Source: a virus
Taxonomy: Duplodnaviria; Caudoviricetes
Virus record (IMG/VR): IMGVR_UViG_3300021399_000113
Location: 74,607-138,606 of that record
Reading direction: 5' to 3' (one strand)
DNA length: 64,000 nt
In this document: piece after piece, positions 16,420 through 61,646 of the stretch
Numbering within the stretch: the stretch's first letter is position 1
Layout: every line of letters starts with the position of its first letter
Position numbers and translations under genes: made by a program
The notes under the pieces: model-generated
What the model was told of the DNA's origin: nothing
The model's input: the letters and a program-made list of their open reading frames with translations, nothing else
The model's database searches: none

Positions 16420-16965
16420 ATGAAATTTAGACTAAAAGAATCCAAGCCCTCCAACATTATAAAACTTGCTGGCTTAAATGGTAACGCTTACAGTACATCA
16501 AAATATTTATATAAACAGATTGTGAGGGAGAATACAAAGTATAATTACGAGGGAGTAACACTCTCTGAAGGGATTGATTATACATTTGACCCTAAGAATT
16601 TGGGTGGTACAATTGTATTCTCTACCGATGTAAACGCAGTTGAAGCCTCAAAAAATAAAATTATAAATTGGGTAAAGCAAAAAATTGCCACTCTCAATAA
16701 CAGACTTCATGCTGTAAATAGAATAGATAAAATTGCACAGAAGCATGACCTTGCTGGCTGGACAGTAGGCAAGGGATTATCTGTTAGGTATACAGCAAAA
16801 AATGGTAAGGTGTTCGGAGAAAATAGTATATCTGTGGATATTGTTGGTATTTCCACTGACACCCTTTTAGAGATTGCAACAGAATTATGTAATTTATTTA
16901 ACCAAGAGGCAGTTCTTGTTAAAGACTACACAACCAAAGATATTTATCTTGTAAATGGAAAATAA
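16420..16965 (+). CDS. Putative SAM-lyase-fold protein with MKFRLKE leader
   Basis: RY...GENS.SV...LLEIATELC..FNQEAVLV resembles the C-terminal SAM lyase pattern. Confidence 0.5.
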   Translation: MKFRLKESKPSNIIKLAGLNGNAYSTSKYLYKQIVRENTKYNYEGVTLSEGIDYTFDPKNLGGTIVFSTDVNAVEASKNKIINWVKQKIATLNNRLHAVNRIDKIAQKHDLAGWTVGKGLSVRYTAKNGKVFGENSISVDIVGISTDTLLEIATELCNLFNQEAVLVKDYTTKDIYLVNGK

Positions 16966-16974
16966 GGAGGACAT

Positions 16975-18339
16975 ATGAATAATCTAATGTTAGAAAATGC
17001 AAACAGATTAGACGAGATTTATAGCACCTATGGCAGACACTATATTCCTCTCACAGAGGCTAATCTTAATCGCATTATTAAGGGACATGATTCTACTGGG
17101 TATGGTGTGTTAAGTGCCTCACGTGCTAACCTCTCAAAAGAAGAAAACGATAAACGCACAAAAGAACTTAAATCAAAAATAAATTCTTTGGGCTACTCTC
17201 ACGTTCCTGTGCTGGGTGGGTATAGAGAAGAGGGAGAGCCTAAAGCAAGTCTGGAAAAGTCCCTTATTGTTTATCCTTATAATTTACGCACAAAGGAATA
17301 TGCAGACCTCAATAAGTTTAAGGATGACCTTGTTGAGTTGGGCAAACATTACAATCAAGACACAGTAATGATTAAAGAACCCGACAAGAACCCTACTTAT
17401 ATTCGCTGTGCAGATAGACAAGCCGATATGGAATTTGATGATGGCTACACTACAAATGATACAGAAGAACCATTCTTTACAGCGCTTAAAAAGTGGAGTG
17501 ATTCTTCTCTTAATCGTAAAAGCCATAATTGGGATAAGGGCAAGCCTCAGAGATTTACACTTAAATCAAATGCTGTTTTTGAGGCATATATTGACCAACA
17601 ACCTATGAGTATTACATCAGAAGTACCTCCAAGATATGCTCTTGGTGAACTTTTTAAGGTTGGATTTACTGGGGAACTGACTGACACATTAAATGAGTCC
17701 AATAATTTCAGAAGAGTTAAACAAGCATTGTGGGGTGACCCTACTGGAAAGATTAGAACCTTTGCTATATTAACTGGTGAAAATCCTCTGGCTTGGGGAA
17801 ATGCTACAGATGATGAAGTTCTCGACCGATACAAAAAATGGCTTAATAATCCAAAAGAATACAATGATAAGATTACTAAGGGACTAAAGGCAGAACTTGT
17901 ACAGAAGTCATTAGAGCAGAATAAAGATAAAGCTTTAAGATATGGTGGGTTTAACTATGCTAAGATTAAAGGAAAGTATGGAGACATCGAGCACTCATTG
18001 ATGATTTTCAATATATCAAAAGAGGATGCTGAACACTTAGCAAGAGCCTATGGGCAAGAGAGTTTCTTTTTTGGTAAGGTATATCCATCATACACACATG
18101 TGGCTTATTACAAAACAACAAATGCTTGTGCAACATATAAATTGATAGAAATATCTGATGTTACAACTAAAGAAGATGGGGATGATTTCTTTAGTAAGTA
18201 TGGTTTTAAGTACAAGATTAACATGAGGGAATTTGGTGATGATGTAATCCCAGTAAAGAATGAGAATGAATTTCAAGAGAGTCTTACTGCACCAATGTTT
18301 CAAAGTAGAGCATCACATCGTAGAGAAGCATACAGATAA
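16975..18339 (+). CDS. Tandem two-domain SAM-lyase-like protein (T3 gp0.3 SAMase/Svi3-3-like)
   Basis: Domain 1: VLSASRANL..EN..R...GGYRE...EKS...LG..YNQDTV. Domain 2: FAILTGENP...GKY...EHS...LARAYGQES. Each starts after an LxE site. Confidence 0.65.
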   Translation: MNNLMLENANRLDEIYSTYGRHYIPLTEANLNRIIKGHDSTGYGVLSASRANLSKEENDKRTKELKSKINSLGYSHVPVLGGYREEGEPKASLEKSLIVYPYNLRTKEYADLNKFKDDLVELGKHYNQDTVMIKEPDKNPTYIRCADRQADMEFDDGYTTNDTEEPFFTALKKWSDSSLNRKSHNWDKGKPQRFTLKSNAVFEAYIDQQPMSITSEVPPRYALGELFKVGFTGELTDTLNESNNFRRVKQALWGDPTGKIRTFAILTGENPLAWGNATDDEVLDRYKKWLNNPKEYNDKITKGLKAELVQKSLEQNKDKALRYGGFNYAKIKGKYGDIEHSLMIFNISKEDAEHLARAYGQESFFFGKVYPSYTHVAYYKTTNACATYKLIEISDVTTKEDGDDFFSKYGFKYKINMREFGDDVIPVKNENEFQESLTAPMFQSRASHRREAYR

Positions 18340-18359
18340 TCGCATAGGAGCATAATTTA

Positions 18360-18935: not shown

Positions 18936-18938
18936 ATA

Positions 18939-20180
18939 ATGACAGACAACAGATATTTTGGTGCAATTAAAGACCCTATTGATAATAGGGATTTTGTTGC
19001 ATCTACAGTAGCATCAAAACAAAAAATAGAAATCCCAGAAACATATATTGTACCGCATTTGGATGAAATTCCAGTGTACAATCAAGGGGGCACAGGGTCA
19101 TGTGTGGCACATGCTCTTGCTACAGCCCTCGCTTTAGGTTACGCTCAAAAAGGTATTCAGATTGATTTCAGCCGTGGATTTATCTATGGTAACAGAAGTG
19201 AAGATGATTATCAAGGGTCAGGAATGATTCCTCGTGAAGCGTTAAAGCATCTTAACCATGAAGGTGATGTACACTATTCTGATTTCATCTATAACTTTGA
19301 AGTGCCATTAATCTTCAAAAAGTTCCAAAAAGAAAAAGAACGCTTATTACCTATTGCAAAAGATTATGTAATTGCAAACTATTACAAAGTAACAACACAG
19401 ACTGAAATCAAAACTGCCTTAATGACTACAGGAGCTGTTGTTGTATATTGTCCTGTTTACGGAGATTTTACTGATGACTTAAAAGCTGAGTGGCGAAGTT
19501 CTTATGATTATGCACATGAGGTTTGTTTAGTCGGGTGGGATGAAACAGGTTGGATTATTCGTAACAGTTGGGGAGACTCTTGGGGTAATAAAGGTAATGG
19601 GCATGTTGATTACAAATATGCTTATTGGGAAGAATATAACTTAAGCCTCTTAGACTTCTGGGCAATCACTCCTATATTCGAAGAAGATACAACCATCGAA
19701 GATGAGGAAGATACTGACGCTAATGAAGACATTAAGGAAGATGAACCAATTGAAGATGAAGAACCAATTGAAGAGGATATTGTAATAGATGATGATTCTT
19801 CAGATGATGACCTTAAAGAAGATATTAAGGAAGATGATACTGACGTTGAGGAAGAAGACGTTGACGTAGAAGAACATCAAGACACAGAAGACATTATCGA
19901 AGATACTACAGAGGAAGACTTTAAAGAAGACGTTGATACAGATGTAGAGGAAACAGATAATACAGAAGACGTTGATATTGACACAGAAGTTGATGATAAT
20001 GTCGATGATACTGAGACAGATACTGACACCGATGTAGATGACAACACTGATGTAGAGGATGACAATAAAGATGAATTGTTAGTCAACGATAAGCGGTTTA
20101 TCTCATTTGTAGAGGCAATTAAAGCAATTATCAAACAAATTCTTGATAGAATAAGGAACATATTTAATGGAAATAAGTAA
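18939..20180 (+). CDS. Papain-like (C1A) cysteine peptidase with long acidic low-complexity tail
   Basis: NQG..GSCVAHA, HEVCLVGW, IRNSWG..WG..G; D/E/T-rich repeats. Confidence 0.9.
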   Translation: MTDNRYFGAIKDPIDNRDFVASTVASKQKIEIPETYIVPHLDEIPVYNQGGTGSCVAHALATALALGYAQKGIQIDFSRGFIYGNRSEDDYQGSGMIPREALKHLNHEGDVHYSDFIYNFEVPLIFKKFQKEKERLLPIAKDYVIANYYKVTTQTEIKTALMTTGAVVVYCPVYGDFTDDLKAEWRSSYDYAHEVCLVGWDETGWIIRNSWGDSWGNKGNGHVDYKYAYWEEYNLSLLDFWAITPIFEEDTTIEDEEDTDANEDIKEDEPIEDEEPIEEDIVIDDDSSDDDLKEDIKEDDTDVEEEDVDVEEHQDTEDIIEDTTEEDFKEDVDTDVEETDNTEDVDIDTEVDDNVDDTETDTDTDVDDNTDVEDDNKDELLVNDKRFISFVEAIKAIIKQILDRIRNIFNGNK

Positions 20181-20889
20181 TTTAAAAGTTTATGACATGG
20201 AAGAGTGTATCTCAGCAAGTGGCTATCCTATGAGGACAAAGGCTGAGATACTTCCCCTTAATGAGAAAGACATTTTAAGAGTTAAGAACCTCACAAAGGC
20301 AAGCAATGGCAATGGTGCACATGGACAGTTTCTTTCTGGAATATTAGTCGCTTTTGACCTTAAGTGTTCTAATAAGATGTGGGTTGAGATGGAACGATAT
20401 AAATTTGTGGTGTTTGATTCTTCTCAGTCTACAATGCACCGTATTTGTAAGTTCGACCTCAAATCGCAGTGTGTTGAAGAAGTGGATGATAGAATCATTG
20501 ATATAGTTAATGAGAAGATTGAGGCTTATAATCGAGATAATTCAATTGAGAATTACAGAAGAGTGCTTTATAATGTACCCGCAGGATTTCAATTAACTGC
20601 CAGACTGAATACAAATTATCGTGCTCTATTAAATATCTACGTTCAAAGATACAATCACAGATTGCAAGAGTGGCAAGATTTTTGTCAGTATATGTTAGAC
20701 AATCTCCCGATGTTCAAAGAGTTAGTTGAGCAGTATTACAGTCACGACAAAGAAGTAATCGCTAAATACTTACAATATTGTGCTGAGTTGACAGATGATA
20801 TAGACATATTCGATACGCATACACTTGATGATTATTACTACACGCACATTCTACCACAGCCACTATCGGATATAATAACAATAAAATAA
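20167..20889 (+). CDS. Divergent ThyX-fold (flavin-dependent thymidylate synthase-like) protein
   Basis: H..FL...WVEMERY...SSQSTMH...NYRAL.NIY.QR.NHRL.EW. Confidence 0.6.
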   Translation: MEISNLKVYDMEECISASGYPMRTKAEILPLNEKDILRVKNLTKASNGNGAHGQFLSGILVAFDLKCSNKMWVEMERYKFVVFDSSQSTMHRICKFDLKSQCVEEVDDRIIDIVNEKIEAYNRDNSIENYRRVLYNVPAGFQLTARLNTNYRALLNIYVQRYNHRLQEWQDFCQYMLDNLPMFKELVEQYYSHDKEVIAKYLQYCAELTDDIDIFDTHTLDDYYYTHILPQPLSDIITIK

Positions 20890-20893
20890 AGTA

Positions 20894-20922
20894 TTGACAT
20901 ATTCACCTTCAAGGAGTATAAT
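20894..20922 (+). promoter_or_regulatory. sigmaA/70-type early promoter
   Basis: TTGACA-17-TATAAT. Confidence 0.85.
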
Positions 20923-20951
20923 AGTATTATAATCTTTGGAGGTGATTTTTT

Positions 20952-21488
20952 ATGATAACAGTTTCAAGACTTACTGAAATGCTTTCTGAGGAAATCGTAA
21001 AGGCGAAGGTAAATGGGCTGGATTTAATTCCCATTCACCCCACAGTCAAACTCAAGAACAGTAAAACGTATTATGGGTTAAATTGCAAGAGCAGAGGCAA
21101 TAGTCAGATTTACATTTCAAAGTATTATCTGAACGCTCCAGAAGAAGAACTTCGCTCTGTAATATGTCATGAGGTTTGTCATTCAGTTAAGGGTAGCCGA
21201 GGACATGATGCGATATGGCGAAGAGCCGTTATGAAAATGCGTAGGAATTATTCTTATGCTTGTGCAGATTATCACCTTAATCCTCATCCTTATTCAACAG
21301 ACAGAAGTGAATGCGAGCATACAGAAATGGCAGAAATGGCAAGTGGTACAAGACGGATTAACTACGTTATGGTCTGCACTGGTTGTGGTTGTACAATAAA
21401 TCGCACACGCATGAGTGATTTCGTAAAGCATCCAGAGAATTACTACTGCCGAAAGTGTCATGGAAAATTTGAAAGAAAGGCATCGTGA
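20952..21488 (+). CDS. SprT-like zinc metalloprotease
   Basis: HEVCH...GH...W plus C-terminal CTGC...CRKC. Confidence 0.85.
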   Translation: MITVSRLTEMLSEEIVKAKVNGLDLIPIHPTVKLKNSKTYYGLNCKSRGNSQIYISKYYLNAPEEELRSVICHEVCHSVKGSRGHDAIWRRAVMKMRRNYSYACADYHLNPHPYSTDRSECEHTEMAEMASGTRRINYVMVCTGCGCTINRTRMSDFVKHPENYYCRKCHGKFERKAS

Positions 21489-21982: not shown

Positions 21983-21984
21983 TT

Positions 21985-22438: not shown

Positions 22439-22467
22439 TTGACAAATTCCTTCACTTGTGATATACT
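22439..22467 (+). promoter_or_regulatory. sigmaA/70-type early promoter
   Basis: TTGACA-17-TATACT with TG extension. Confidence 0.8.
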
Positions 22468-28446: not shown

Positions 28447-28639
28447 TAAGGGAGAAACGCTTACTATAACCTATGTTGATGATACTTGGGTAATATTTAA
28501 TAATAGAAAATTAACCCAAAAACAATTTAACACGATGGCACAACTTAGGCATTTCCATAGAACTAATTGAGATTGTTGTATATGCTAAGTGAGAGATTAA
28601 ATCTTGCTTAGCATATATATATGCTTGAAAGGTAATAAA

Positions 28640-29140: not shown

Positions 29141-29827
29141 ATGAAATTTAGATTATTAGAATCTTATGAAGATACCGAAGAATTTATTGATAATGAGCTT
29201 CTTGATGAGGATATAAACGAAGAAGATGATTTAGATGAATATTTTTATAATCATTTAAAGGAAGACGACTTAGAAGAAGCTTTTAATGTAGGGGATAAGG
29301 TTAAGGTTAACAAGACTGGTCGTAAAGGTGTTGTGAGTAAGAAGCGAAAAACTCTGTATGATGTAAAATTAGATGCAGACAGAGTGCATAAACCAGAGCA
29401 AGATGTCTTTTATGACCATGAGTTATCACTTACTGAGGGGGCTAACATTGACACAGATATTACAGTGACTGCTGAAGAAGATTTAACAGGTCCTGTTACT
29501 GATAAAGATAATGGCATTTCTAATTTATTAATTGCTTTGATTAACGATGAGTGGAATGCTATTAGTCAGTATAATGATTTTATAGTCAATGCTAAAGCAC
29601 AAGGCTATACAGATACTGAGTCTATTATCAATGATATTATCACAGAAGAACATAAGCATATCGGTCAGCTACAGTCCATCCTTAAAACTATTTCTACAGC
29701 AACAGACGCTATTGATACTGGAATAGTTGAGGGTGAGCAACAAATGTTGGATGATGACACTGATGATGATGTGGCTGGATTAGACGTAATAGCAGACGCT
29801 ACTGCTAATTATTTTAAGGGTAGATAA
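29141..29827 (+). CDS. MKFRLLE-leader protein with KOW/SH3-like and ferritin-like domains
   Basis: FNVGDKVKV; LINDEWNAISQY...IITEEHKHIGQL (ExxH di-iron-type motif). Confidence 0.65.
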   Translation: MKFRLLESYEDTEEFIDNELLDEDINEEDDLDEYFYNHLKEDDLEEAFNVGDKVKVNKTGRKGVVSKKRKTLYDVKLDADRVHKPEQDVFYDHELSLTEGANIDTDITVTAEEDLTGPVTDKDNGISNLLIALINDEWNAISQYNDFIVNAKAQGYTDTESIINDIITEEHKHIGQLQSILKTISTATDAIDTGIVEGEQQMLDDDTDDDVAGLDVIADATANYFKGR

Positions 29828-38740: not shown

Positions 38741-38880
38741 TTGTAAATATTTAAGTGGGTATGTTTTTGCATGTCCACTTTATTTTATACCCTTTAAAAG
38801 AAAATTTTCAGTTTCTAATTAAAATATTGTATAGAAATATGGAGATTTTTATAACCGATTCTAAAAGGAGATAATAATAA

Positions 38881-42124: not shown

Positions 42125-42166
42125 ATGAAATTTACAAGAGTTTTAACTGAAGATTCTGATGAATAG
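42125..42166 (+). other. 13-aa leader-only mini-ORF MKFTRVLTEDSDE
   Basis: Same leader pattern, followed by a stop and a terminator. Confidence 0.45.
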
Positions 42167-42176
42167 ATATTGATAT

Positions 42177-42212
42177 AAATACTTGGGAACATACTCCCAA
42201 GTATTTTTTTTT
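42177..42212 (+). terminator. Intrinsic terminator
   Basis: AAATACTTGGGA-ACATAC-TCCCAAGTATTT plus T-tract. Confidence 0.8.
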
Positions 42213-42246
42213 AGTTATTGTATATTGTTGTGTGAGGGGTTCTATA

Positions 42247-45800: not shown

Positions 45801-45914
45801 ATAAGACAAAGACAAGACGCAGTAAATAAACAAGTAGAAACAACAGTAGGCATAAATAGCCGCAATCTTGCCAATGACTTATACTTAACAAGTCAAGGTA
45901 TTGTTGCGATATAG
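42846..45914 (+). CDS. terL: Terminase large subunit (intein-containing)
   Basis: Walker A SGARGIGK|S, Walker B FFDE, RNase H-type HLDMS, DHP..G.KD..DA. Confidence 0.92.
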   Translation: MININTEQFNNLSAEEQKEVVKILNEYAEKGASVTFDNLLYEDYKEIPVDIETFITDDRYLGKAWKDTENHIKLYPFWLEQLKKLFPTNLDTAYNTLLESGARGIGKAQPLYSKLLTPNGFITMKDVTVGSLVYGEDGKPHKVTHIFPQGEKDVYEVRFSDNSTTRCCKEHLWTVIQKYNHNRETTITLEDIMNRGLRTNPTKHGWTACRFGIPITAPVEFEHRDVFISPYTLGVLIGDGHICGGNTCFTSIDSEIVDRVTSEILPNGYVLSRYEDSYSIVNADKSHKGKINNDNKYKQAIHDLKLDVKSYEKFIPEDYLLTDVNSRIQLLQGLMDTDGYVTKGGYLVYYTTSERLRDDFIFLVQSLGGTAPCRIKKGKYKNTNGEVVECRDCYEITVNLPSSISPCSLTRKLIRLNNNKKEPFRTIHEITYVGKEECQCILIDSDKHLYLTDNLIVTHNSEVACGCAMAYLMYRVMCLKNPLEFYHLKPTEKIVFAFMNIKKELSKEIAISKFQKTIQLSPWFMARGTMTQFENAPYWNPPSDISIVIGSQSDDVIGQPIFCAFFDEISFVRNQDIDKQKKKALDMIDTALGGMRTRFIHEGKNPTLLIVASSKRSEQSFMESYIKTKSETEGNSTLVVDKPVWEVKPQGTYKPITFKVGLGNKFLESVVIPDGADVWEYKSKGYTIIDVPIDFKATFIENINRALCDYAGISSFSANKYFSGEVVAENILDFIHNAMPELITVGNMDKVQYKDYFDMTKIPSEYKYKPLYIHLDMSVSGDTTGICGTWIIGKKPTTEGDAGKDLLFRLAFGFAVRAPKGQQISFEKNRNFIRWLREQGFNIGEISADTFQSYDLLQILQSEGFNTTILSVDRVDPESHICKPYQFLRSTVYEHRLQMFKCDRLFDEFVEVERNNSTGKIDHPTGGRKDLLDAVCGSVFTASSHAEEYAYNFGEDLDLAIQTNTANPMITQQQIQMNLDDILKSIRQRQDAVNKQVETTVGINSRNLANDLYLTSQGIVAI
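43167..44225 (+). mobile_element. Ala-start class-3 intein (353 aa) with LAGLIDADG endonuclease in the terminase Walker A
   Basis: AQPLYS start; EHLW (Trp, block B), CQCI (Cys, block F), VTHN|S (Thr, block G); LGVLIGDG and LLQGLMDTDG. Confidence 0.9.
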
Positions 45915-46999: not shown

Positions 47000-48889
47000 T
47001 TGGAAGATAATAATGTATTTGAAATAGAAAAGGGCACATATAATAGAGAAACAGTTTCAGTTCCAAAGCCACAACCTAAAACTGGTATGGACACTGATGG
47101 AGCATTCTATGATAATATTATATCGGCTGGCTTAACAAACCAACTTGATACAAGTGAGATTGATAGATTCTCCACATTATCAGAACGTAGAAATCAAATC
47201 TATAAAATGTTTGATGCTATGGGAGAAGATTCAAGAGTGTCTGCTGTATTAGACACATATGCTGAGGATGCTACTGAGCCAAGTGATACTGGTAGAATCA
47301 TGTGGTGTGAATCAGATGATGCTGATGTGGCAAAACTCATTACGTTCTATCTTGATAGCATGAACGTAGATAAGAACTGTTTTAAGTGGGCACACGCACT
47401 CTGTAAATATGGTGATGTTTATTTAAGACTTTATAGAGAGTCAGATGAAGATGACCATTTATTTAACAAAGAGGATATTGACGCAAGAGAGTCAGTAAAC
47501 GAGAATAGGAAGTCAACTCTTACAGAGGCAATTAAGATAAGAGCCTATAAGAAAACGGATAACTATACTCATTATGTTGAGATGAAAGAAAACCCAGCAG
47601 AAATGTTTGAGCTGAGTAAGTTCGGTAAGACTTATGGATTTATCCAAGCAGATGTAGAGCGTGTTACAGACGACAACTCACCGATTATGTACCAAGAATA
47701 TTATAGATATAAGTTTAACCAAAAAGATATAAACATCTTTGAGGCAACTGAATGGGTGCATGGTATGTTGGAAGATAATTCTTCTCGTAACCCAGAAGAA
47801 GTTACAATCTTTTTATCTGACAATCTGGAAGACGAGAAGAAGTATACCTATAAAGTTAAGAGAGGTCAATCTTTACTGTATCACGCATTTAAGATTTGGA
47901 GAGAGCTAACACTACTTGAGAACTCTCTTATGCTTAATCGTGTTACCAAATCTTCAGTGTTAAGAGTAATCAGTTCAGAAGTTAAGGATATGCCAAAAGA
48001 GAATGTCATTCCTCACCTTCAGTCCATTAAGAACATGGTAGAGCAAAAGACAGCTCTTAATACAAATCAATCTATGTCTGAATATACAAATCCAGCACCA
48101 ATGGAGAATACCATTTATGTATCAACAAGAAATGGTGTAGGTGCATTAACTGCATCACAGATTGGTGGAGATGTTGATATAAAATCCATAGCGGACATTG
48201 AGTATTTCTTAAATGCTTTGTTTGGAACATTACGTGTACCTAAACAGTATTTTGGATATGTAGATGATAATGGTGGATTTAGTGGTGGTCAATCACTCTC
48301 TATTATTTCATCTCGTTATGCTAAGTTAGTAAAGCGTATTCAGAATGCACTTATACAAATGGTAACAGATGCAGTCAACCTCATGTTAATTGACGTAGGG
48401 TTAGACGCATATATTAATAAATACACATTAAAGATGCAAGCACCTACAACACAAGAAGAGATTGATAGACGTGATAACACATCTGGAAAGGTACAGCTTG
48501 TATCAGATATTATGAATATGTTATCTGATATAGAAAGCCCAGTTGTTAAATTAACAATTCTTAAAACTTTACTTGCAGATGTTGTAAATGAGCCAGAAGT
48601 AATTAGTCTTATTCAAGAAGAGATTGATAGACTTGAACAAGAGGGTGCAACCGAAGGTGAATCCGAAGAGGGTAATAATGACTTTGGTGGAGAATCTACT
48701 GGCTTAGGTGGTGGTGGATTTGATAGAAGCACACCAATGGATTTAAATGATGAAGCAACTGATTTTGGTGGAGACATAGAGGACAATGAAACCTCTGATA
48801 CAGAAGAGCCAGAAAAGGGTGCTGAAGAAACTGTATTACCATCACCAAGTGATTTAGGTGTTGACTTTACTAATGATAATGAACAGTAA
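47000..48889 (+). CDS. Portal protein (T4 gp20-like)
   Basis: KYGD, W..L.LLE.S....R, DIEYF...LF..L.VPK; position between terminase and protease. Confidence 0.85.
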   Translation: MEDNNVFEIEKGTYNRETVSVPKPQPKTGMDTDGAFYDNIISAGLTNQLDTSEIDRFSTLSERRNQIYKMFDAMGEDSRVSAVLDTYAEDATEPSDTGRIMWCESDDADVAKLITFYLDSMNVDKNCFKWAHALCKYGDVYLRLYRESDEDDHLFNKEDIDARESVNENRKSTLTEAIKIRAYKKTDNYTHYVEMKENPAEMFELSKFGKTYGFIQADVERVTDDNSPIMYQEYYRYKFNQKDINIFEATEWVHGMLEDNSSRNPEEVTIFLSDNLEDEKKYTYKVKRGQSLLYHAFKIWRELTLLENSLMLNRVTKSSVLRVISSEVKDMPKENVIPHLQSIKNMVEQKTALNTNQSMSEYTNPAPMENTIYVSTRNGVGALTASQIGGDVDIKSIADIEYFLNALFGTLRVPKQYFGYVDDNGGFSGGQSLSIISSRYAKLVKRIQNALIQMVTDAVNLMLIDVGLDAYINKYTLKMQAPTTQEEIDRRDNTSGKVQLVSDIMNMLSDIESPVVKLTILKTLLADVVNEPEVISLIQEEIDRLEQEGATEGESEEGNNDFGGESTGLGGGGFDRSTPMDLNDEATDFGGDIEDNETSDTEEPEKGAEETVLPSPSDLGVDFTNDNEQ

Positions 48890-49453: not shown

Positions 49454-50998
49454 ATGCCTCAAGATACAGTAAATGATGGTTTATTACATTTTACTGACGA
49501 GAATGGAATAGAGAAAGCCATATTAGGTACATTAGAAGGTGCTTGTGCAGACTTCATTGCTCCCACTCGTAATGGCAGATTATATAATGATGAACTGTGG
49601 GGGGAAGTTTTTGAAAAGAACCCTATAGTGAATGAGTTATTTGAAAATGGTGGTATCGTTGGTGAATTAGACCACCCAGCAAATTATAATTCAGAGGGTG
49701 TCGAAGACAGAGATGAAAGCGACACTTCCAGAACGGCAATTCTGTTAAAGGAAAAGCCAGTAAAAAAAGATGGTAAATATTGGGCAAAGTTTTTAATTCT
49801 CAATACACCATTAGGTAAGATTGCGTATACATTAGCAAAGGCTGGATTTAAATTTGGTGTAAGTTCAAGAGGGTCTGGAGATGTTCTTACAGATGATAAT
49901 GGTAATGAATATGTCGACCCACTTACTTATGATTTTAAAGCATTTGACTTAGTATTGTTACCAGCAGTTAAGTCTGCAAGGTTAAGTCTTGTTACTGAGT
50001 CATTAGATACCAAAAAGAAATTTAATTATAAAGAAGAACTTACAGAGCAAATCAATTCTGCTGATGATGAGGGTAAAAAGTTAATAACAGAAACCCTTGA
50101 CCATTTAGGAATACGCTATCAATCAACCGATAAGGTTGTTAATATAGAGGATGAGCCTACTAAAGAAGAAGTTGTCAATGACAAGTCAGATTTAATTAAG
50201 CAACTCCAAGAAGCATTATTGAATAACCAAAAGTTAGAAAAAGAGATTACTAATCTTCAAGAAAAATTATCAGTTTGTTATACAAAGGAAAGTCGTAACG
50301 AAGAAGTAATTGAAAAGTATAAGACTTCAATTCAGAAGTTAACCGAGTCACTAAAAATTGCTAAAGTAGAATCCCTAAAAATTCCAAAGTTACAGACTGT
50401 AATTTCTGGTCTTAAGGAAGATATTAATACTAAGGATGCAAAGGTTGCAGAATTAACTGAAAAGTTAAGAGTAAGTGCAAAGAATAAAAAGGGATTAAAT
50501 GAATCTCTTGCTAAACAAGAGAATGATGTAAAAGAATTAACTAATAGAGTACATACCTTATCTGAATCCTTAAAGGAAACCAGAGTAAAGGCAAAACAAG
50601 ATGTTGAAACTCTTACTGAAAAGTTAGAAGACTTAAAGAAGGATTCCGCTATTAAGAAAAAGGAATACTCAGATAAGTTAAAACAGTCCAATGGACTTGT
50701 TGAGAAATATAAATCAATCGCAAAGACAGTTGTAAATGAGTATATTAGTTCTCAAGCGAAAATGATTGGAGTAGGCACTGCTGAAATAACCAATAAACTT
50801 CCTGCTAATTATTCATTAAATGATATAACTGCTGTTTGTGAAAGTTTAAGAGATACAAAGATAGCATTAAATAAATTACCATTTGATACAAGAAGAATGG
50901 CAAATGCAAAAATTGTTGCTAATCAACCAAAAGAGCCAATTCTTCCAACAAATGAAGATGATATAGTTGATGAATCTTTGTTATCATTTTTACGCTAA
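49454..50998 (+). CDS. Prohead protease (T4 gp21-like) fused to a coiled-coil scaffold
   Basis: NGRLY, GELDHP, TP.G, GVSSRGSG, FDLV..P; long coiled coil with many LxES sites. Confidence 0.9.
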   Translation: MPQDTVNDGLLHFTDENGIEKAILGTLEGACADFIAPTRNGRLYNDELWGEVFEKNPIVNELFENGGIVGELDHPANYNSEGVEDRDESDTSRTAILLKEKPVKKDGKYWAKFLILNTPLGKIAYTLAKAGFKFGVSSRGSGDVLTDDNGNEYVDPLTYDFKAFDLVLLPAVKSARLSLVTESLDTKKKFNYKEELTEQINSADDEGKKLITETLDHLGIRYQSTDKVVNIEDEPTKEEVVNDKSDLIKQLQEALLNNQKLEKEITNLQEKLSVCYTKESRNEEVIEKYKTSIQKLTESLKIAKVESLKIPKLQTVISGLKEDINTKDAKVAELTEKLRVSAKNKKGLNESLAKQENDVKELTNRVHTLSESLKETRVKAKQDVETLTEKLEDLKKDSAIKKKEYSDKLKQSNGLVEKYKSIAKTVVNEYISSQAKMIGVGTAEITNKLPANYSLNDITAVCESLRDTKIALNKLPFDTRRMANAKIVANQPKEPILPTNEDDIVDESLLSFLR

Positions 50999-51042
50999 TA
51001 AGTTGTATATATTGTTATAATAAATTAAGGAGTAAATAACAC

Positions 51043-51232
51043 ATGAATCTTTTAGAGAAATATAGCAACAGACTTAAAGTTGCTGAGTCTTTATATTCAA
51101 AGACACACAGTGGTGCTCCTATGGACACCAACCAGAAGCTTTGTGTTGCTACTTGCCTTGATAACGTTTCTCGTTATTTAACAGAAGCATTTAACTCAAG
51201 CGAGGGTACACAGAGAACAGATATGGGAGCGT
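51043..51232 (+). CDS. Major capsid protein (T4 gp23-like), exon 1
   Basis: AAGGAG RBS; YLTE|A processing site; joins in frame to exons 2 and 3 (477 aa spliced). Confidence 0.88.
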
Positions 51233-52110: not shown

Positions 52111-52387
52111 ACAAGGTGAATTATTGGAAACTCTCTTAACATAGTACAGAGTGTTAAGAGACAATCAATAGCCAAGTTCATATATTTTATATGAAAAGGT
52201 TTAACGACTATCGAAAGCATAGTATGTGAGAAATACACATACGAAGAAGTGAGTAGAGTAGGAGATAGTATCTCCGAAGTGCCTTGCATCTTTATTGCGG
52301 TAGCAGTAATAAAGATGGTGATATAGTCTGAACACTATAGTGATATAGTGAGAATAATCGGAAACGGATTATTCATAACACACTTTG

Positions 52388-52424
52388 ATAAGAAATTCTG
52401 TATGACTCTTACAAACGTAGCCTT
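52388..52424 (+). CDS. Major capsid protein, 37-nt micro-exon 2
   Basis: Encodes (Y)KKFCMTLTNVA(L) in frame between the two introns. Confidence 0.85.
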
Positions 52425-53677: not shown

Positions 53678-54884
53678 ACCTAACCTTATTGCTAACGAAA
53701 TCGTACTTGTAAAACCTCTTCCAAGTATGACAGGCTACATCAGCTACATGAAGTATTCTTATGGTAGCACAAAGGGTGGCACTGAAGCTGGTACAGAGTT
53801 AAACAGCCCATTCAAACTTGGTTTAGTTGATAAGAACTATACTTCAAGGTTTGTTCCAGAGGCTAAGCCCGCTGTAGCAAGTGGTGGTGTTGTTGCTGGT
53901 ACTCTTACATGGACACCAGTTGTACCTAATTTCGTAGAATTCGTAATTGGTACTGACGTATATCGTGATGGTGGCGATGGTAAGATTTACAAGGGCAGAA
54001 CTGTTACTACAAAAGACACAACTGATAGTTGGGGTAATGTAACTCCTGCTGGTACAGTTGTTAATGCTGGTACAGAAGTTACTGGTTCTTCTATCAACTA
54101 TCAGACAGGTGCTTATACATTTACAGATGTTACATTAACAGAAGCTACAGCAGTTATGTGTAACTATGTATATGATAACGAAGTTGTTCCTCAGAACGAC
54201 CTTCCTACTATTGTTGGTAAGATGGATGGTATCGCTCTTGTCGCTAAGCCAAGACGTATTGCCATCTACTACAATCAGTTAGCACAATTTCAGGCTAAAA
54301 CGGATTATGGTTTCGACCTTGCTACTCAGTTAGCAGAACAGGCAGTTGGTACACTCTCTGCTGAAATTGATACTGAAATCACAGACTTACTTATTGATAA
54401 CGCTACACTTAAGCCTTCACTTACTTTCAATAAGACTGTTCCTATTGGTATCACAAAGCACGAGCACTATGCTGACTTCACTGAAATCCTTGAGTTAGCT
54501 AAGAAAGAAATCTATGATGTAACACGTAGATTCGTTCCTAACTACATGATTTGTGCAAGTGATATTCTTCCTATACTTGCTTTCATTCCAGAGTTCAAAC
54601 AGGCGTCTACTGGTCAGATAAACGGGCCATATTTCGCAGGTACTCTTGGAAGTCTGAAGGTATTTATTGTACCTCGTACAGATTTCGCTGGCAAGTTCGT
54701 AATTGGTGTAAATGGTAACGACTATATGACAGCGGCTGCCGTCTATGCACCTTACATGCCTATCATCCCAAGTGGTGAAGTAACTTACGCAGATGGTCTT
54801 ACATCTAAGGGTTGGGCTACTATGTACGACCTTAAGATACTTAACCCTCTGTTACTTATCAAGGGACAAATCGTTGCTGAATAA
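53678..54884 (+). CDS. Major capsid protein (T4 gp23-like), exon 3
   Basis: PNLIANEIVLVKP..SMTG; L.AEID.EI; YAPY.P gp23 signatures. Confidence 0.93.
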
Positions 54885-54916: not shown

Positions 54917-54984
54917 AAATATGTGTGGGATTGTGGGGCTACACCCACACATTCTACACATATTTTTATATAAAAGGATTGTTT

Positions 54985-56289
54985 ATGGTCAAAGGACAAA
55001 TTGCATACAATAATGGCAATAGAATAATATTTTTGACTGAAGGCGAAGATATTCCAAAGGGATTTGTTCGTGGAGGATTACCTCGTATGTCTGCTGAAAG
55101 ATATAAACAGGCGGGTAGGAAATCCTCGCAGACACAAAAAGATGCTTGGAATAACTTATCACAGGAAGAAAAAGACATAAGACTTTCCTCTTTACATGAT
55201 AGAATGTTTACTGATGAAGTAAATGCTAAACGTGCTGAATCATGTAGACATACGATGTCATTAAAGAGTGAAGAAGAATTGTCTGCTATTTCTGAAAAGA
55301 AAAGCGAATCACTTAAAAGAACTTGGGCAACAAAAACCTCTATTGATAGAGAGAATAGAAGAATAAAGACAAAAGAGACTTGCATAGAGAAATATGGAGT
55401 AGAGTTTCCTTGTCAACTTCCTCAATGTGGATTATCTAATAGTGGTACACATACCAAACCAAATGAAACATTTGCTCGTTTATTAGATAAATATAATCTT
55501 GAGTATGAGCGTGAGTTCCCTTTAAGTAAATATAAATATGATTTTAAAGTTGGTAATATCTTATTTGAAATAAACCCCACGGCTACACATAATTCTACTT
55601 ATGGAATTTATTATAGGGATGGATTAGATAAAAAGTATCATTACAACAAAACCAAACTTGCTTTTGATAGTGGTTATCATTGTGTCAATGTTTGGGATTG
55701 GGATGATGCAGAACTTCTGATTAAAACCTTTTGTATTCCTAAAGAAAGGATTTATGCTCGGAAGTGTGATATTAAGGAAGTCACACAAACAGATGCTGTT
55801 ACATTTATAAATAACAATCATTTACAAGGATATGCTAAAGATAGTATTAGACTTGGATTGTATTATAATAATGAGTTAGTATCTATTATGACTTTTGATA
55901 AGCCTCGCTATAATCATAAATACGATTATGAACTTGTTAGATATTGTTCAAGTAAATCAATCATAGGTGGGGCAAATAAATTATTCAAACACTTCCTTGA
56001 TAGATACAAACCAACTTCTGTTATATCATATTGTGATAGAAGTAAATTTAATGGTAATGTGTATATTGAATTAGGATTTACTGCCGAGAAGATTTCTGTG
56101 GGAAAGCATTGGTATAATATAAACACTAAAAAGCATATCACAGATAATCTTTTAAGACAAAGAGGGTTTGACCAATTGTTTGATACCAACTATGGTAAAG
56201 GAACTTCTAATCGTGATTTAATGATACAGCATGGCTTTGTTGAAGTGTATGATGCGGGACAACAAAGATATGTTTATTATCACATATAA
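54985..56289 (+). CDS. Freestanding Hef-like homing endonuclease (PD-(D/E)xK plus GNAT-like C-domain)
   Basis: KYDF...FEIN...H...VWDW; YARKC...F...HLQG...YEL.RY...GGA.KL...SYCDR. Confidence 0.75.
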   Translation: MVKGQIAYNNGNRIIFLTEGEDIPKGFVRGGLPRMSAERYKQAGRKSSQTQKDAWNNLSQEEKDIRLSSLHDRMFTDEVNAKRAESCRHTMSLKSEEELSAISEKKSESLKRTWATKTSIDRENRRIKTKETCIEKYGVEFPCQLPQCGLSNSGTHTKPNETFARLLDKYNLEYEREFPLSKYKYDFKVGNILFEINPTATHNSTYGIYYRDGLDKKYHYNKTKLAFDSGYHCVNVWDWDDAELLIKTFCIPKERIYARKCDIKEVTQTDAVTFINNNHLQGYAKDSIRLGLYYNNELVSIMTFDKPRYNHKYDYELVRYCSSKSIIGGANKLFKHFLDRYKPTSVISYCDRSKFNGNVYIELGFTAEKISVGKHWYNINTKKHITDNLLRQRGFDQLFDTNYGKGTSNRDLMIQHGFVEVYDAGQQRYVYYHI

Positions 56290-56321: not shown

Positions 56322-56377
56322 AAAGAGTAGTCTATGGCTGATATAATTTATTCTATACTCGTAGACTACTCTTTTTA
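56322..56377 (+). terminator. Intrinsic terminator
   Basis: AAAGAGTAGTCTA...TAGACTACTCTTTTT. Confidence 0.65.
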
Positions 56378-56428
56378 TTATTGTATAAAGTAGTTGTAGA
56401 ACTAATTTTGTGAAAGGAAATAAAAATA

Positions 56429-56644: not shown

Positions 56645-56674
56645 TTTATTTAGAAATTATTAAGGTGGTTAACA

Positions 56675-57385: not shown

Positions 57386-57400
57386 CTAAAGGAGATAACA

Positions 57401-58747
57401 ATGTCAGATTTATTAAAAGATGCATTCAGAGAATTGGATTTTCTGACTGAAGACGTTTTTGATACATCATCTGATGGATTACAACAGTTACAAGATTTTA
57501 ATGATGAGGAAGAGGAATCTCCTATCACCATTATTGACATAGAGGCTGAAACAGAAGATGAACTCAAAGATTCTTATATTGGAAATGTAATTCTGGAATG
57601 TGCTGTATGCAAGACAAAGATTTACAAAGACCCTAAAGATGTGGTTGTTGATGAAGAAGAGGGTCTTGCTAATATGGACGAAGAGTGTCCTTATTGCTTT
57701 AACACATCTGGATATAAAGTAATTGGACAAGTAGCCCCTTACTCTGAGGTTGACGCTAAATCTACTGAAGAAGATACAGATGTTACTGTTGATGGTGACG
57801 AAGTAGAAGTAGAAGAAGAGGACAAGGAAAAGGTTGAGGAAGGATTACTTGACAGCCCAGTAGAAAAGATTTCTAAGGGAATTAAATCTGTTGCAAGCAA
57901 CCTCGGTCTTACTGATGAATTACAGACTGATGATGAAGATGAAGAAATCTTAACAGAGGATTTTGCTTCATTTGTTAATTGGTTAGGGGCACATAAAAAT
58001 CAACTTAATGCTGTAAAGAATTCTGCAAGCGGTATATTAAATATCGTGCACAAGGCATTAAAGGATGATAGTTTCAAGGACAATGAAAAGGTACAGAAAC
58101 TTATTGCTAAGTGGGATAAGGTAAAAGATTCTGCTCAGTTACTTGCTGATATTTTCAAGGTAGCAGATAGCAAGACAGTTACTGAATCATTTGATAATGT
58201 ATCTATTGATTTAGATGATGCTGAGATTTCTATTAAGTCTAAAACACCAGTAAATGATTTTGGTGGTGAACCCAAGGATGAAGTTATTAAACCAATATCC
58301 GATGAGTTAGAGGCTGAGATTTCAAACAATACAGAAGAAGATGAGGAAGATACTGAGGAAGTAGAAGAGCCTATTGAAGATTTCGATGAGGAAGAATTTG
58401 ATAGACTTGGAGAATCCTATCTTAAGAAAGTTTACGAAAACGTAAACTCATTTAAAACAACAAGTGTAAAAGAAAATCATAATAACCTCATTGTTGAAGG
58501 TATGATTAAATTTAAGTCTGGAAGTTCAAAGCCAACACGCTTTGTATTTACACCAGACACAATAACTTCTAAAGGTGCTGTGAGATTCTTAGGTGAAAAC
58601 CTTTCTATTGTTGATACAAGAACAAGAAAGACTAAACCATTTACCTTAACTGGTAAGTTAAATAAAGGTAAATTTATTGCAGAATCTTTAAATTATAATT
58701 ATGCAATTAAGGGTACTGACAATAAATATCACTATGTGAGAGGATAA
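57401..58747 (+). CDS. Acidic virion/core protein with Zn-ribbon and many LxE sites
   Basis: CAVC...CPYC; FLTED, ILTED, VTES, LGES. Confidence 0.6.
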   Translation: MSDLLKDAFRELDFLTEDVFDTSSDGLQQLQDFNDEEEESPITIIDIEAETEDELKDSYIGNVILECAVCKTKIYKDPKDVVVDEEEGLANMDEECPYCFNTSGYKVIGQVAPYSEVDAKSTEEDTDVTVDGDEVEVEEEDKEKVEEGLLDSPVEKISKGIKSVASNLGLTDELQTDDEDEEILTEDFASFVNWLGAHKNQLNAVKNSASGILNIVHKALKDDSFKDNEKVQKLIAKWDKVKDSAQLLADIFKVADSKTVTESFDNVSIDLDDAEISIKSKTPVNDFGGEPKDEVIKPISDELEAEISNNTEEDEEDTEEVEEPIEDFDEEEFDRLGESYLKKVYENVNSFKTTSVKENHNNLIVEGMIKFKSGSSKPTRFVFTPDTITSKGAVRFLGENLSIVDTRTRKTKPFTLTGKLNKGKFIAESLNYNYAIKGTDNKYHYVRG

Positions 58748-58752
58748 TATAG

Positions 58753-60345
58753 ATGCAGATTAAGAAATTAAATGAGGCTTTTACATCTATGTATAAAGCA
58801 GAGGATAACCTCACAGAAAACATTTTTGAAGCATTAGAAGCTATTAACGCTGATGAAGCTGATACTAAGGTGGCAGATACAGATTCTGAATCCCAAGCAC
58901 AGAAAGATGATAAGCTCACTGAAGAGCAACATCATAAAGAGACCGAAGAAGAGAAGAAAGATAACGATAATATTCGTTCAGCTCTTGCAAAGCGTCATAA
59001 GCGTGTTAATGCAAAACTCACTGATGAAGAAGAAACCGCAATGGACAAACATGGAGTTATAGATTCTGGTCATGGTTATGGTTCATATGTGGCTAAGGAT
59101 AATGTCAAATACCTTCCGCATGTCAAGGGTAACCATGATAAGATTAACTATGCACACAAGATTGCCACAGATAAGAGTGGGGAGCGTGGGTATGCTAAAT
59201 CCATCAATGATAACAGACGTTATACTAAACAAACTTTCCAAGATGCTGAAAGAGAGCTGGAAAATGAGTTTAATAAATACCCAGTAGAAAGGGCTAAGTA
59301 TTATACTGGTATTAGAAAAGGTGCACGTGACAATAAAGCTAAAGCTGAGGCAGAGTTTGATAATGCTGTACGTAGGGCTGTATCTAATCGTGACTTTTCT
59401 GTTAATCAAGCAAAAACAACCGAGGATAAAGCTACCAGAGAATTACGTGGTATCTTAAACAGAAGACGTGAAAGATTAGATAAGAAACGTGCAGAACGTG
59501 GAGAGCTTACTGAAGATAGACACCACAGGATAACTGATGATGAAAAGCGTGATAATGCCTTAATTCGTTCTGCTATGAGAAAACGTAAGGCTGAACAATC
59601 TAAAGAAGAGAAAGATGCTTTAGATAGAAACGGACTTTCAACTGACCGCAGAACTGGTTCTCTTTCCTATTATAAGGGTGGTAGAGAAAGAAGCGTTGGT
59701 GGTACAGACATGTATGATGACAAGGTAAATCTTGTTGACAAAGTAAGGACTGCCAAAAGTGCTGAAAGAGATTATGCAAGACATCTTATGGGTGATAAAA
59801 ACAGTAACTCATATACAAGAAAGTATAACCGTGATGCACTTGACAACTTCCAAGCAAGAGAGCGTAGAGTGCAGAACCAGAAATCTGAAGATAGAGCAAA
59901 CCTTGAATGGGCATTACATGATAGAAAGAGAGATACTGAACGTCTCAATGATGTAGATACTGATTTTGAGCGTGAAGTTAAGAACGCAGTAGAGCGTAGA
60001 GATAGGGCTAAGACTCGTTACAGCAAAGACATTGAGGCTGACAATCAAGACATAAGGGATATTCTTGGTAATAAGAAAGCAAAACTCAATGCTAAAAGAG
60101 GGGTAACTGAATCTAAGAAGGTAGATGAGAATAGACCCTCTGTATTTGAAGCGTATAAAAATGAGAGTGTAAAAAGGGCGCAAGCTCTTCATGAATCTAT
60201 TGCAAGAAGAAAGAGAGTTATTGAGTCTCTTAAAGAAAAGAGAGCAACAAAACATCTTACTGAAGCAGTAGCACCTAAGCACAGTAAGAAACCTCTTATT
60301 ACAGAGAGCGCTAAAATGCGTAGAAAACCCATCAAAAGAAAGTAA
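58753..60345 (+). CDS. Arg/Lys-rich protein with two tandem domain copies, each starting after LTE
   Basis: LTE|EQHHKETEEEKKDNDNIRSA versus LTE|DRHHRITDDEKRDNALIRSA. Confidence 0.65.
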   Translation: MQIKKLNEAFTSMYKAEDNLTENIFEALEAINADEADTKVADTDSESQAQKDDKLTEEQHHKETEEEKKDNDNIRSALAKRHKRVNAKLTDEEETAMDKHGVIDSGHGYGSYVAKDNVKYLPHVKGNHDKINYAHKIATDKSGERGYAKSINDNRRYTKQTFQDAERELENEFNKYPVERAKYYTGIRKGARDNKAKAEAEFDNAVRRAVSNRDFSVNQAKTTEDKATRELRGILNRRRERLDKKRAERGELTEDRHHRITDDEKRDNALIRSAMRKRKAEQSKEEKDALDRNGLSTDRRTGSLSYYKGGRERSVGGTDMYDDKVNLVDKVRTAKSAERDYARHLMGDKNSNSYTRKYNRDALDNFQARERRVQNQKSEDRANLEWALHDRKRDTERLNDVDTDFEREVKNAVERRDRAKTRYSKDIEADNQDIRDILGNKKAKLNAKRGVTESKKVDENRPSVFEAYKNESVKRAQALHESIARRKRVIESLKEKRATKHLTEAVAPKHSKKPLITESAKMRRKPIKRK

Positions 60346-60354
60346 TAAATAATA

Positions 60355-60855
60355 ATGGAACAGTACGGCATTTTATTAAATCAACATAATATAAAACTTA
60401 ATAGAATGTACTTCCAAGAAATGACAAGGCTTATTGGGGTACAAGTTATATATCGTGCCCCAAAAGCAAATTGTCATTGGACAACTTATGCAGAAATAGA
60501 AAGTAATTACCAAGCCCCAGAACTCTTAGGTGTTATTTATGAAGAACATCCTTCTCAGAATACATTAAAGAAGATAGGCTGGGTAAGTGAATTACAACCT
60601 AACTCTGTATTGATACATGTTCCTTATGATTTACATGATTTGCAGGCTGGTGCATTGTTTGTTCTTCCAAGTGGTATAGATACAGCCAAGGGAAGATTAT
60701 TCAAAGTAGTTACCATAAGTAACATTATGTTATATCCAGCATCCATACTTATAGAGTTAGTTCCAGAATATATTGATACAATGGATGTAACACAAGTGGA
60801 TGACTACAGAGAAACAAGTTTCAACCTATTAAGGGGTGAGGGGGATGATGAATGA
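60355..60855 (+). CDS. Putative head-closure/neck protein (gp14-like)
   Basis: F.E...L.G..V.Y motif and synteny. Confidence 0.5.
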   Translation: MEQYGILLNQHNIKLNRMYFQEMTRLIGVQVIYRAPKANCHWTTYAEIESNYQAPELLGVIYEEHPSQNTLKKIGWVSELQPNSVLIHVPYDLHDLQAGALFVLPSGIDTAKGRLFKVVTISNIMLYPASILIELVPEYIDTMDVTQVDDYRETSFNLLRGEGDDE

Positions 60856-61646
60856 GAGTATTACATGAGGCAGAAAAACATCCTATCACAGTAGACCCAA
60901 AGATAAAAGAGTTAAAAGGTGGTTTTGCATTTCCTAATAATTATGATGTATTAAGAGATGGAATTATAACACCTTATATACATAAGTATGGTGGAAAATA
61001 TACTGACCCTTTTATTAAATATCTACAGAGTTTACAATTCTCCTTAAAAGGTAAACTTCCTTATGTCAATTGGATAATGCAGAATGTATTAGCAAGTAAA
61101 TATTTGCCATCGTTCTTTTCTGCTAAGCCAGCACAAGACGAACAGTTATTTGATAATAACGATAGAGATTTTAAATACATAACAAATCTTATTTCTGTAT
61201 TATATGATAGGAATAAGGTTAAGGAATATGTAAGCGGTAACCCTACTCAATCAGAAATTAAAGACGTGTTTTATGATGGAGCTAATTTAAGGAAAGCAGG
61301 AATTAAATCAGAAGACCCTGACTCCATTTATCAAAAAGTAGAAGAGATTTCACAAAGTAAAGGTAGAACAAGTAATCTTTCTGATTTAGGTGAGCCTCAG
61401 TACAATGAGACTGTTGAAGATTGTGTTCAATACTTTATTGCTTTATGGAATGCTGAGATAGGTGAACCATTCAGTGATAGGAATGTAAAGGCAGTATTTA
61501 ACTCTTACAAGAATAATAAGCATGATAGAGTTCTTCAGCTTATGACAATCAATCTTAAGAAGTATGCTGAGATTAAACACATTAGTAAATTGGAAGACGC
61601 TCTTGACGCATTGATTAAAGACGTGAACTTTACATTAGCACAATGA
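60852..61646 (+). CDS. Hypothetical protein with MRVLHE leader
   Basis: ORF in the neck/tail operon. Confidence 0.6.
   Translation: MRVLHEAEKHPITVDPKIKELKGGFAFPNNYDVLRDGIITPYIHKYGGKYTDPFIKYLQSLQFSLKGKLPYVNWIMQNVLASKYLPSFFSAKPAQDEQLFDNNDRDFKYITNLISVLYDRNKVKEYVSGNPTQSEIKDVFYDGANLRKAGIKSEDPDSIYQKVEEISQSKGRTSNLSDLGEPQYNETVEDCVQYFIALWNAEIGEPFSDRNVKAVFNSYKNNKHDRVLQLMTINLKKYAEIKHISKLEDALDALIKDVNFTLAQ

Follow-up and report, generated by a model that had tools for sequence, protein, structure and literature searches.

Many otherwise unrelated proteins of an uncultured gut phage (IMG/VR record IMGVR_UViG_3300021399_000113) begin with one short leader, consensus M-K-F-[KR]-L-x-E, which is probably a protease-removed capsid-targeting propeptide of the kind known from phage T4 as the capsid targeting sequence (CTS); we put the probability of this reading at roughly 0.6. 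The phage is represented by a single-contig genome of 138,606 bp with nearly all genes on the + strand. The window analysed here is its right-hand 64 kb, and gene names with the prefix w (for example, w29141) give the start coordinate within it. The leader would direct its carrier proteins into the assembling prohead core, and the gp21/S77-type protease encoded by open reading frame (ORF) 49454 would cleave it off behind the glutamate. The same protease would trim the capsid precursor at ...YLTE|AF and degrade its own scaffold tail. We infer physical packaging, cleavage and delivery to the next host.

In T4, the CTS is a conserved 10-residue tag on the internal proteins IPI-III and Alt; it marks anti-restriction proteins that are otherwise diverse, and gp21 removes it (PMC3012670, PMC5694885). 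The two systems share a short conserved N-terminal peptide that ends in hydrophobic-x-Glu and sits on unrelated, fast-evolving proteins, together with a gp20-type portal, a gp21-type protease, a gp23-type capsid protein, a propeptide cut at [FY]LTE|A and a scaffold filled with LxE. At the sequence level, the locus behaves like the T4 system in every respect that could be tested. The leader itself has no sequence homology to the T4 tag MKTYQEFIAE, which we found in T4 only, on the two adjacent genes ipII and ipIII; the leader is therefore best described as an analogous variant, not as the same leader. It comprises 7 residues (MKF[KR]LxE) rather than 10 and marks ~15 genes rather than ~4; these are scattered, and half of them follow early-type promoters. 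Further differences are the fusion of protease and scaffold and the uncultured gut bacteria that serve as hosts, and packaging and cleavage are predicted from sequence. While the T4 capsid targeting system is already known, the resemblance of a ferritin-like cargo domain to an encapsulin ferritin is new here.

A leader on otherwise unrelated proteins

We defined the strict motif as M[KR][FYH].[LIV].E. It matches ten times over all six frames of the 138.6-kb genome, and nine of these matches lie 0-14 codons past an upstream stop and open ORFs of 93-493 aa. The internal per-site core frequency (1.8e-4) predicts 0.04 strict N-termini among the ~200 genes, and shuffling residues 2-9 of each N-terminus gave a mean of 0.08 with a maximum of 2 in 2000 trials. 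Nine are thus observed against 0.04-0.08 expected. Of the ten leader N-termini listed in the initial annotation, which was made from the DNA letters alone, nine are real ORF starts (16420, 23888, 27856, 28640, 29141, 38153, 40640, 58753 and 60852), whereas the one at 42125 opens only a 13-codon stub. Counting looser forms (MKKNKLTE, MQIKKLNE, MRVLHE, MKTFKLSE, MRFQLLDE and MKKYLVE), ~15 genes carry the leader; such forms, including MKIKKLNE and M-x-L-x-E, probably serve the same targeting role.

Apart from the leader, most of the proteins show no relationship in an all-vs-all BLAST comparison, and we rejected the possibility that they are paralogs. A single small homologous group is formed by w16975 and its paralogs g27486 and w38153, which have a domain in common; beyond the window, the early half of the genome holds further leader genes. 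The leaders share no conserved upstream DNA, and they use different synonymous codons (TTA, CTT, CTA and TTG for Leu; AAA and AAG for Lys) or exchange Lys for Arg. The leader is therefore a protein-level signal, and a conserved DNA cassette with promoter and ribosome-binding site was rejected on the same grounds. Leader genes cluster strongly in the related genome G001 only and marginally in the present one.

k-mer enrichment and a genome map revealed two classes of intergenic motif, a perfect sigma-70-like TTGACA-N17-TATAAT and (A)TTGTATA, which together look like an early/late promoter switch. (A)TTGTATA precedes structural operons, sitting ahead of capsid, adaptor, terminase and tail-fibre genes. 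Behind it lie w16420, w28640, w29141, the operon w38881-w40640, w58753 and w60852. Some 30 near-perfect TATTGACAAAT-N17-TATAAT promoters are spread over the early two-thirds of the genome (window 4019, 4555, 6632, 7416, 14269, 22439 and others).

The leader occurs together with one protease lineage. Scanning 2.9 million viral contigs with a leader DNA pattern returned 48 loci, with 28 matches at ORF starts, and five of the recovered contigs (G001, G002, G004, G011 and G017) encode a protease-scaffold that is 43-47% identical to the one in the window; most protease-negative contigs are fragments, 12-29% complete. The AT-rich phages G012 and G013, which are without this protease, served as controls. 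In the six clade genomes, the N-terminal [LIV]xE motif with Glu at positions 4-9 exceeds shuffles made within each N-terminus in an order-specific manner (z=6.1, 3.1, 3.1, 3.9, 4.8 and 3.0). The corresponding values are z=0.5 for T4 and ~0 for the two controls. By gene calls, strict leaders number nine in G000, five in G001, six in G011 and one each in G002, G004 and G017; a start-independent scan found a second one in G002. Across these 23 leaders, conservation ends at Glu7, with the consensus L5-x-E7. AT-richness was rejected as the cause of the leader by the shuffles, by the AT-rich controls and by G011, which has 42% GC and six strict leaders.

The leader persists while the domains behind it are rearranged. 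w27856 and w28640, two separate genes in this phage, each with its own leader, are homologous to residues 486-611 and 100-186, respectively, of one 680-aa G004 protein starting MDLRE. The C-terminal half of w40640 corresponds to a 275-aa G004 protein that opens directly with MKVLE. The w29141 domain stands behind MKKLVLNE and MKLNE in G001 and G004, and in G002 behind MKFKQIKD, with Asp in the place of Glu. Many of the tagged genes are accessory: their content varies between relatives, and they are scattered outside the head module.

Protease, scaffold and capsid propeptide

The head module is of the T4 type, with a large terminase, a gp20-type portal, a gp21/S77-type protease and a gp23-like capsid protein. 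ORF 49454 aligns with T4 gp21 at 26% identity, with NRNxRxY, GEL[ND]HP and GVSSRGxG conserved, and keeps the catalytic His (His74, equivalent to T4 His85) and Ser (in GVSSRG); it scores 26.3 bits against PF03420 (cut-off 27), and a PDB sequence search with the protease gave no match. The protease domain ends at the invariant Glu182 (...SLVTE|SLD). The fused tail bears out the repeated scaffold sites noted in the initial annotation: its 329 residues hold 18 [LIV]xE, or 5.5 per 100 aa compared to 1.7 genome-wide (composition-shuffle P=0.0006), mostly as L-[TNSK]-E|S-L. In the T4 core protein gp22, the density is 7.4 sites per 100 aa.

Recognition of hydrophobic-x-Glu is characteristic of gp21-type proteases. 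That this motif fills both scaffold and capsid propeptide argues against recognition of the leader by a different protease or sorting system, such as the papain-like C1 peptidase or a host system, as does the lack of a hydrophobic, signal-peptide-like segment behind the leader. Although the C1 peptidase and an SprT-like metalloprotease are encoded in a TTGTATA operon that is opened by a leader gene, we regard this explanation as highly improbable.

The capsid precursor contains the predicted YLTE|A site, as ...RYLTE|AF in exon 1, and this exon aligns with the capsid N-termini of HSE3, LIS04, GXN1 and G017 at conserved [LM]-x-E. T4 head proteins follow a similar grammar (gp23 FLTE65|A66, gp24 MAKINE|LLRE|S, gp67 MEGLIE|A and gp68 MLLIPE|T). 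The six clade genomes, which encode ~254,000 residues in total, contain the sequence of the capsid maturation site, [LIV][NTS]EAF, 15 times; composition predicts ~0.27 per proteome. Six of the 15 are the capsid propeptide site itself, one per genome. The remaining nine fall within the first 13 residues, in w58753, the w57401 orthologs, G001_11707, G001_5992 and the second site of the G011 capsid propeptide; no internal occurrence was found in these genomes. In contrast, T4 and G013 together have two, both of them internal.

Two of the proteins concerned bear on a further explanation, namely that the leader is a protease site or scaffold-binding tag on assembly, core or DNA-condensing internal proteins, which are degraded or kept for head structure and are not delivered effectors. 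The capsid-type L-x-E|AF site is seen in two structural-module proteins, the acidic w57401 and the basic w58753; in w58753 the five residues of the leader site are those at which the capsid matures, and the w57401 orthologs in five relatives begin M..L[TNS]E|AF, with an additional FLTE|D at residues 14-17 of w57401. The T4 core proteins gp67, gp68 and gp22 show this N-terminal grammar too, and the half-ferritin domain described below could serve oligomerization or Dps-like DNA binding. However, many tagged genes are accessory, variable among relatives and scattered outside the head module, and they include S-adenosylmethionine (SAM) lyases, an enzyme family known for counter-defence. We therefore consider it unlikely that a role in head structure accounts for the leader.

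Internal processing sites in the leader proteins are not supported. Several of the proteins had been described as polyproteins with linker sites, but all eight proposed boundaries are gene junctions with a stop codon, most with a Shine-Dalgarno (SD) sequence before the next ATG; w16975, for example, is a separate gene whose start is preceded by both. Internal [LIV]xE shows no enrichment in the leader proteins, at 2.05 vs 1.74 per 100 (p=0.10).

Several observations weigh against the capsid-targeting reading. The complete phages G012 and G013 have one strict-leader ORF each without the protease. T4 shows no genome-wide [LIV]xE excess, so that the ~24 extra tagged genes would make an unusually large cargo set. 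Among more distant S77 phages, GXN1, HSE3 and LIS04 have no strict leader; it is a lineage-specific code, and we rejected it as a general property of Firmicute T4-like phages. The tail sheath (in 4/4 genomes compared), the head-tail adaptor and several replication proteins, none of which can be prohead cargo, carry the loose motif as well, so part of the ~24-gene excess has another cause or reflects conserved structural N-termini. About half of the leader genes lie behind early-type sigma-70 promoters: seven (g27486, g28848, g59536, g60830, w7477, w23888 and w27856) stand directly behind TTGACA-N17-TATAAT, and more leader genes are found in the early half of the genome, which contradicts the proposal that all of them are late. 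In one leader class, conservation runs beyond the Glu (LNE-DLF). w57401 itself reads LKD-AF, with Asp replacing the Glu of its orthologs. The ferritin-like domain was found by tblastn in 0 of 50,697 cultured-phage records, the clade being uncultured. Finally, the leader codons are somewhat richer in A/T than the general 5' bias (GAA in 22 of 23), and a translational component is therefore possible.

Some of these points would also fit a general start-of-gene preference, related to translation initiation or N-terminal stability and unconnected to the capsid: the enrichment of the loose motif on sheath, adaptor and replication proteins, the early-type promoters and the codon bias. Such a preference is a rather improbable cause, since the residue order is fixed (0.08 in shuffles of the same residues vs 9 observed), the same signal is present in the relative with 42% GC, conservation across the strict leaders stops at the Glu, the capsid maturation sequence is used again solely at N-termini, and the pattern accompanies one protease lineage and does not occur in the AT-rich controls. 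The proposal of a portable leader that ends in a gp21-type motif on diverse accessory proteins is supported indirectly: by protease homology with retained catalytic residues, by leader/protease co-occurrence, by N-terminal reuse of the capsid site, by retention of the leader through domain shuffling and by its disorder in structural models.

The sheath N-termini in the window (62653) and in G001, G002 and G004 have I-x-E at residues 6-8 (MPSIRIGE, MPRIVINE, MNRIIISE and MSRIEIRE).

Ferritin-like and SAM-lyase-family cargo

The ferritin-like label given to w29141 proved correct. The protein consists of the leader, a disordered acidic linker of ~110 aa and a C-terminal domain that resembles the encapsulin-cargo ferritin EncFtn, a two-helix half-ferritin. 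In the AlphaFold2 model, two long helices reach a predicted local distance difference test (pLDDT) score of 96-98, while residues 1-120 score 42-55. By fold, the model matches EncFtn, EncB and EncC most completely (5n5e, 5da5, 7s8t and 7s5c), with target-normalized template modelling scores of 0.58-0.81 and Foldseek E-values that are not significant. Among 150 sequences, 97-99% keep E137, Y144, E170 and H173. The ferroxidase centre of EncFtn is formed by Glu32, Tyr39, Glu62 and His65 (PMC5012862), which the half-ferritin residue set (E, Y(+7), ExxH) matches.

A search with residues 100-228 of w29141 alone returned 804 metagenomic cluster representatives of 116-1451 aa, in which the domain is usually C-terminal. 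Among the best Met-starting relatives, 104/148 carry [LIV]xE in the first 10 residues (shuffle mean 37.7, maximum 55), and leader types such as MKIKKLNE|S/A, MILNE|DLF, MKLIKE|S and MKF[KR]LVE recur. The domain is single-copy in each of the six clade genomes and present in neither T4 nor the two controls. A minimal member of 122 aa is encoded 4.6 kb upstream of a terminase that shares 51% identity with the terminase of this phage. Like EncFtn, the domain has two helices with the E, Y(+7), ExxH set, and its proposed container is an HK97-fold shell. In contrast to EncFtn, it follows an N-terminal, presumably cleaved tag and is fused to large, variable N-terminal regions, and its metal binding is predicted. 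No C-terminal encapsulin localization motif was found in w29141 (...ANYFKGR) or at the C-termini of its clade homologs, and the neighbours of w29141 are phage genes, with no adjacent encapsulin shell gene.

The assignment of SAM-lyase-like proteins held for w16975 and is weak for w16420 and w38153. w16975 scores 65.8 bits against PF23780 (gathering threshold 28) and is a bona fide member of the S-AdoMet-lyase family, with predicted activity; in its N-terminus, Glu occupies position 7 and Met P3. The match of w16420 (20.8 bits) lies under the cut-off. For w38153, the best fold matches of the model are phage SAM lyases (6zm9, 6znb, 8bb1 and 7ock), although these are weak. Residues 1-5 of this model have pLDDT <50 and the core >=90, and the LTE that forms the second site of w38153, ahead of GLSRIW, may belong to the fold as a strand and not be a cleavage site. 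We found 36 metagenomic homologs of w38153, many of which open with MKFKLV or MKFRLI followed by a variable linker; no leader cluster was seen in the context of one distant homolog (L086). The cargo resembles the phage SAM lyases T3 gp0.3 and Svi3-3 (PF23780) through the family score of w16975 and the fold matches of w38153. In contrast, the known enzymes are early and cytoplasmic and not reported as packaged, and w38153 and w16420 lie under the family thresholds, their activity being predicted. The ART-like, ParB-like and Ocr-like labels of the initial annotation found no counterpart in Pfam or PHROG. Besides w16975, the weak w38153 and w16420 and the ferritin-like w29141, no other cargo protein could be assigned to a family in these databases; this includes w23888, whose N-terminal part is very acidic.

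The presence of SAM-lyase-family proteins and an EncFtn-like half-ferritin among the cargo makes an early counter-defence or protective role after ejection plausible. The reading of the cargo as an injected payload against host defence is an inference of lower confidence than capsid targeting itself. If the reading is true, packaged proteins would act before any phage gene expression, where first-strike counter-defence is expected, and the known repertoire would grow well beyond the few internal proteins of T4. A leader that acts like the T4 CTS would also provide a sequence rule to predict which proteins lie inside the heads of uncultured gut phages, and a compact 7-residue tag to load foreign proteins into capsids. 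More tentatively, a large clade of uncultured gut phages might load fast-changing cargo (SAM lyases and a clade-wide half-ferritin) via the N-terminal zip code M-K-F-K/R-L-x-E, followed by gp21-type removal. The leader-tagged EncFtn-like half-ferritin, with 804 representatives and none cultured, would then link phage capsid cargo to encapsulin cargo: ferritin would be loaded into an HK97-fold shell in viruses as well as in encapsulins, which bears on the origin of encapsulin cargo loading.

The giant phages phiKZ, 201phi2-1 and SPN3US offer a second comparison, as many of their head-internal proteins are cut at x-x-Glu by a gp21-related prohead protease, and paralogs share conserved N-termini (PMC5694885). 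The processing of many head-internal proteins at such sites by a related enzyme would be the likeness. The propeptides of the giant phages are mostly >100 residues with the motif (S/A/G)-x-E, whereas those proposed here have 5-8 residues with Leu at P3.

Genomic setting

The positions of the leader genes, head genes and other features are collected in Table 1.

Table 1. Features of the window, with positions, strand and supporting evidence or remarks
Feature	Position	Strand	Evidence or remark
w7477, loose leader MKKYLVE|V, 94 aa	7477..7761	+	directly behind early-type promoter; outside the range of the initial annotation
w16420, leader MKFRLKE|S, 181 aa	16420..16965	+	first gene behind TTGTATA at 16317
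w16975, two-domain S-AdoMet-lyase-family protein, starts MNNLMLE|N	16975..18339	+	PF23780 65.8 bits
Guanylate kinase	18360		
Papain-family C1 peptidase	18939-20180		
SprT-like metalloprotease	20952 (region 18939-21488)		
w23888, leader MKYILNE|D, 141 aa	23888..24313	+	operon behind early-type promoter at 22439
w27856, leader MKKNKLTE|K, 196 aa	27856..28446	+	weak SD
w28640, leader MKHRLNE|G, 162 aa	28640..29128	+	behind TTGTATA at 28576
w29141, leader MKFRLLE|S, 228 aa	29141..29827	+	EncFtn-like half-ferritin domain ~aa 120-200
EncFtn-like half-ferritin domain	29498-29740 (aa ~120-200 of ORF 29141)	+	
w38153, leader MRFKLVE|N...LTE|G, 195 aa	38153..38740	+	SAM-lyase-like fold (predicted)
w40640, leader MKFKLQE|R, 493 aa	40640..42121	+	last gene of operon behind TTGTATA at 38827
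13-codon stub MKFTRVLTEDSDE, then stop	42125..42166	+	not a gene
Large terminase, 1022 aa, intein-like insert	42846-45914		
Portal, T4 gp20-type	47000..48889	+	phrog_213 1.3e-28
Prohead protease (S77/gp21-like, ~aa 20-185) fused to coiled-coil scaffold tail	49454..50998	+	phrog_207 1.6e-29
TTGTATA late-like promoter motif ahead of capsid gene	51003..51009	+	intergenic k-mer enrichment
Further intergenic TTGTATA starts	16317, 28576, 31163, 33751, 38827, 42218, 54908, 56381		
Major capsid exon 1 (propeptide), MNLLE|..VAE|..RYLTE|AFNSS	51043..51231	+	
Major capsid last exon, gp23-like	53679..54884	+	tblastn with capsid proteins of four relatives; phrog_138
w57401, acidic 448-aa structural-module protein	57401..58747	+	
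w58753, basic (Lys/Arg-rich) 530-aa structural-module protein, MQIKKLNE|AF	58753..60345	+	
w60852, MRVLHE|A, 264 aa, structural module	60852..61646	+	loose-motif case
Tail sheath	62653		

The only relatives in culture, Streptococcus phage GXN1, Bacillus phages HSE3 and SP-15, and Listeria phage LIS04, are distant (27-32% identity). The portal matched 1285 phages by tblastn, mostly T4-like. A megablast search with 20 kb against cultured phages gave 0 matches, and scans of viral contigs seeded with the w40640 protein and with the portal recovered no relatives. For w40640, tblastn against cultured phages found nothing, and the ESM Atlas gave no usable match.

The capsid gene is split by homing-endonuclease inserts, within which two GIY-YIG endonuclease ORFs (51373 and 52601) are located; a candidate mini-exon near 52366-52422 is weak. 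No Rfam family reached the gathering threshold on the window, group I introns included, and the inserts are therefore not confirmed as group I introns. In the relative G017, the capsid gene is uninterrupted. Directly 3' of the capsid gene lies a free-standing HNH-type homing endonuclease ORF (54925-56289), with both promoter motif types ahead of it. The PHROG matches of the terminase show a pattern typical of an intein insert, and a terminase fragment of 417 aa from the relative L117 aligns solely to residues 446-764 of the phage terminase.

The C1 peptidase, the SprT-like metalloprotease and guanylate kinase share a TTGTATA operon with w16420, its first gene, and with the SAM-lyase-family w16975. 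Among the relatives G001 (L054), G017 and L117, TAG occurs in frame within the protease (8 and 3 codons), and one gene translates only if TAG is read as Q; TAG appears to be read as sense in some clade members, while the genome of the window itself uses the standard code. The stub MKFTRVLTE... starts 3 nt past the w40640 stop, and behind it come a T-run-bearing GC hairpin and a TTGTATA motif, in that order (42125-42225); it may be the remnant of a lost leader gene.

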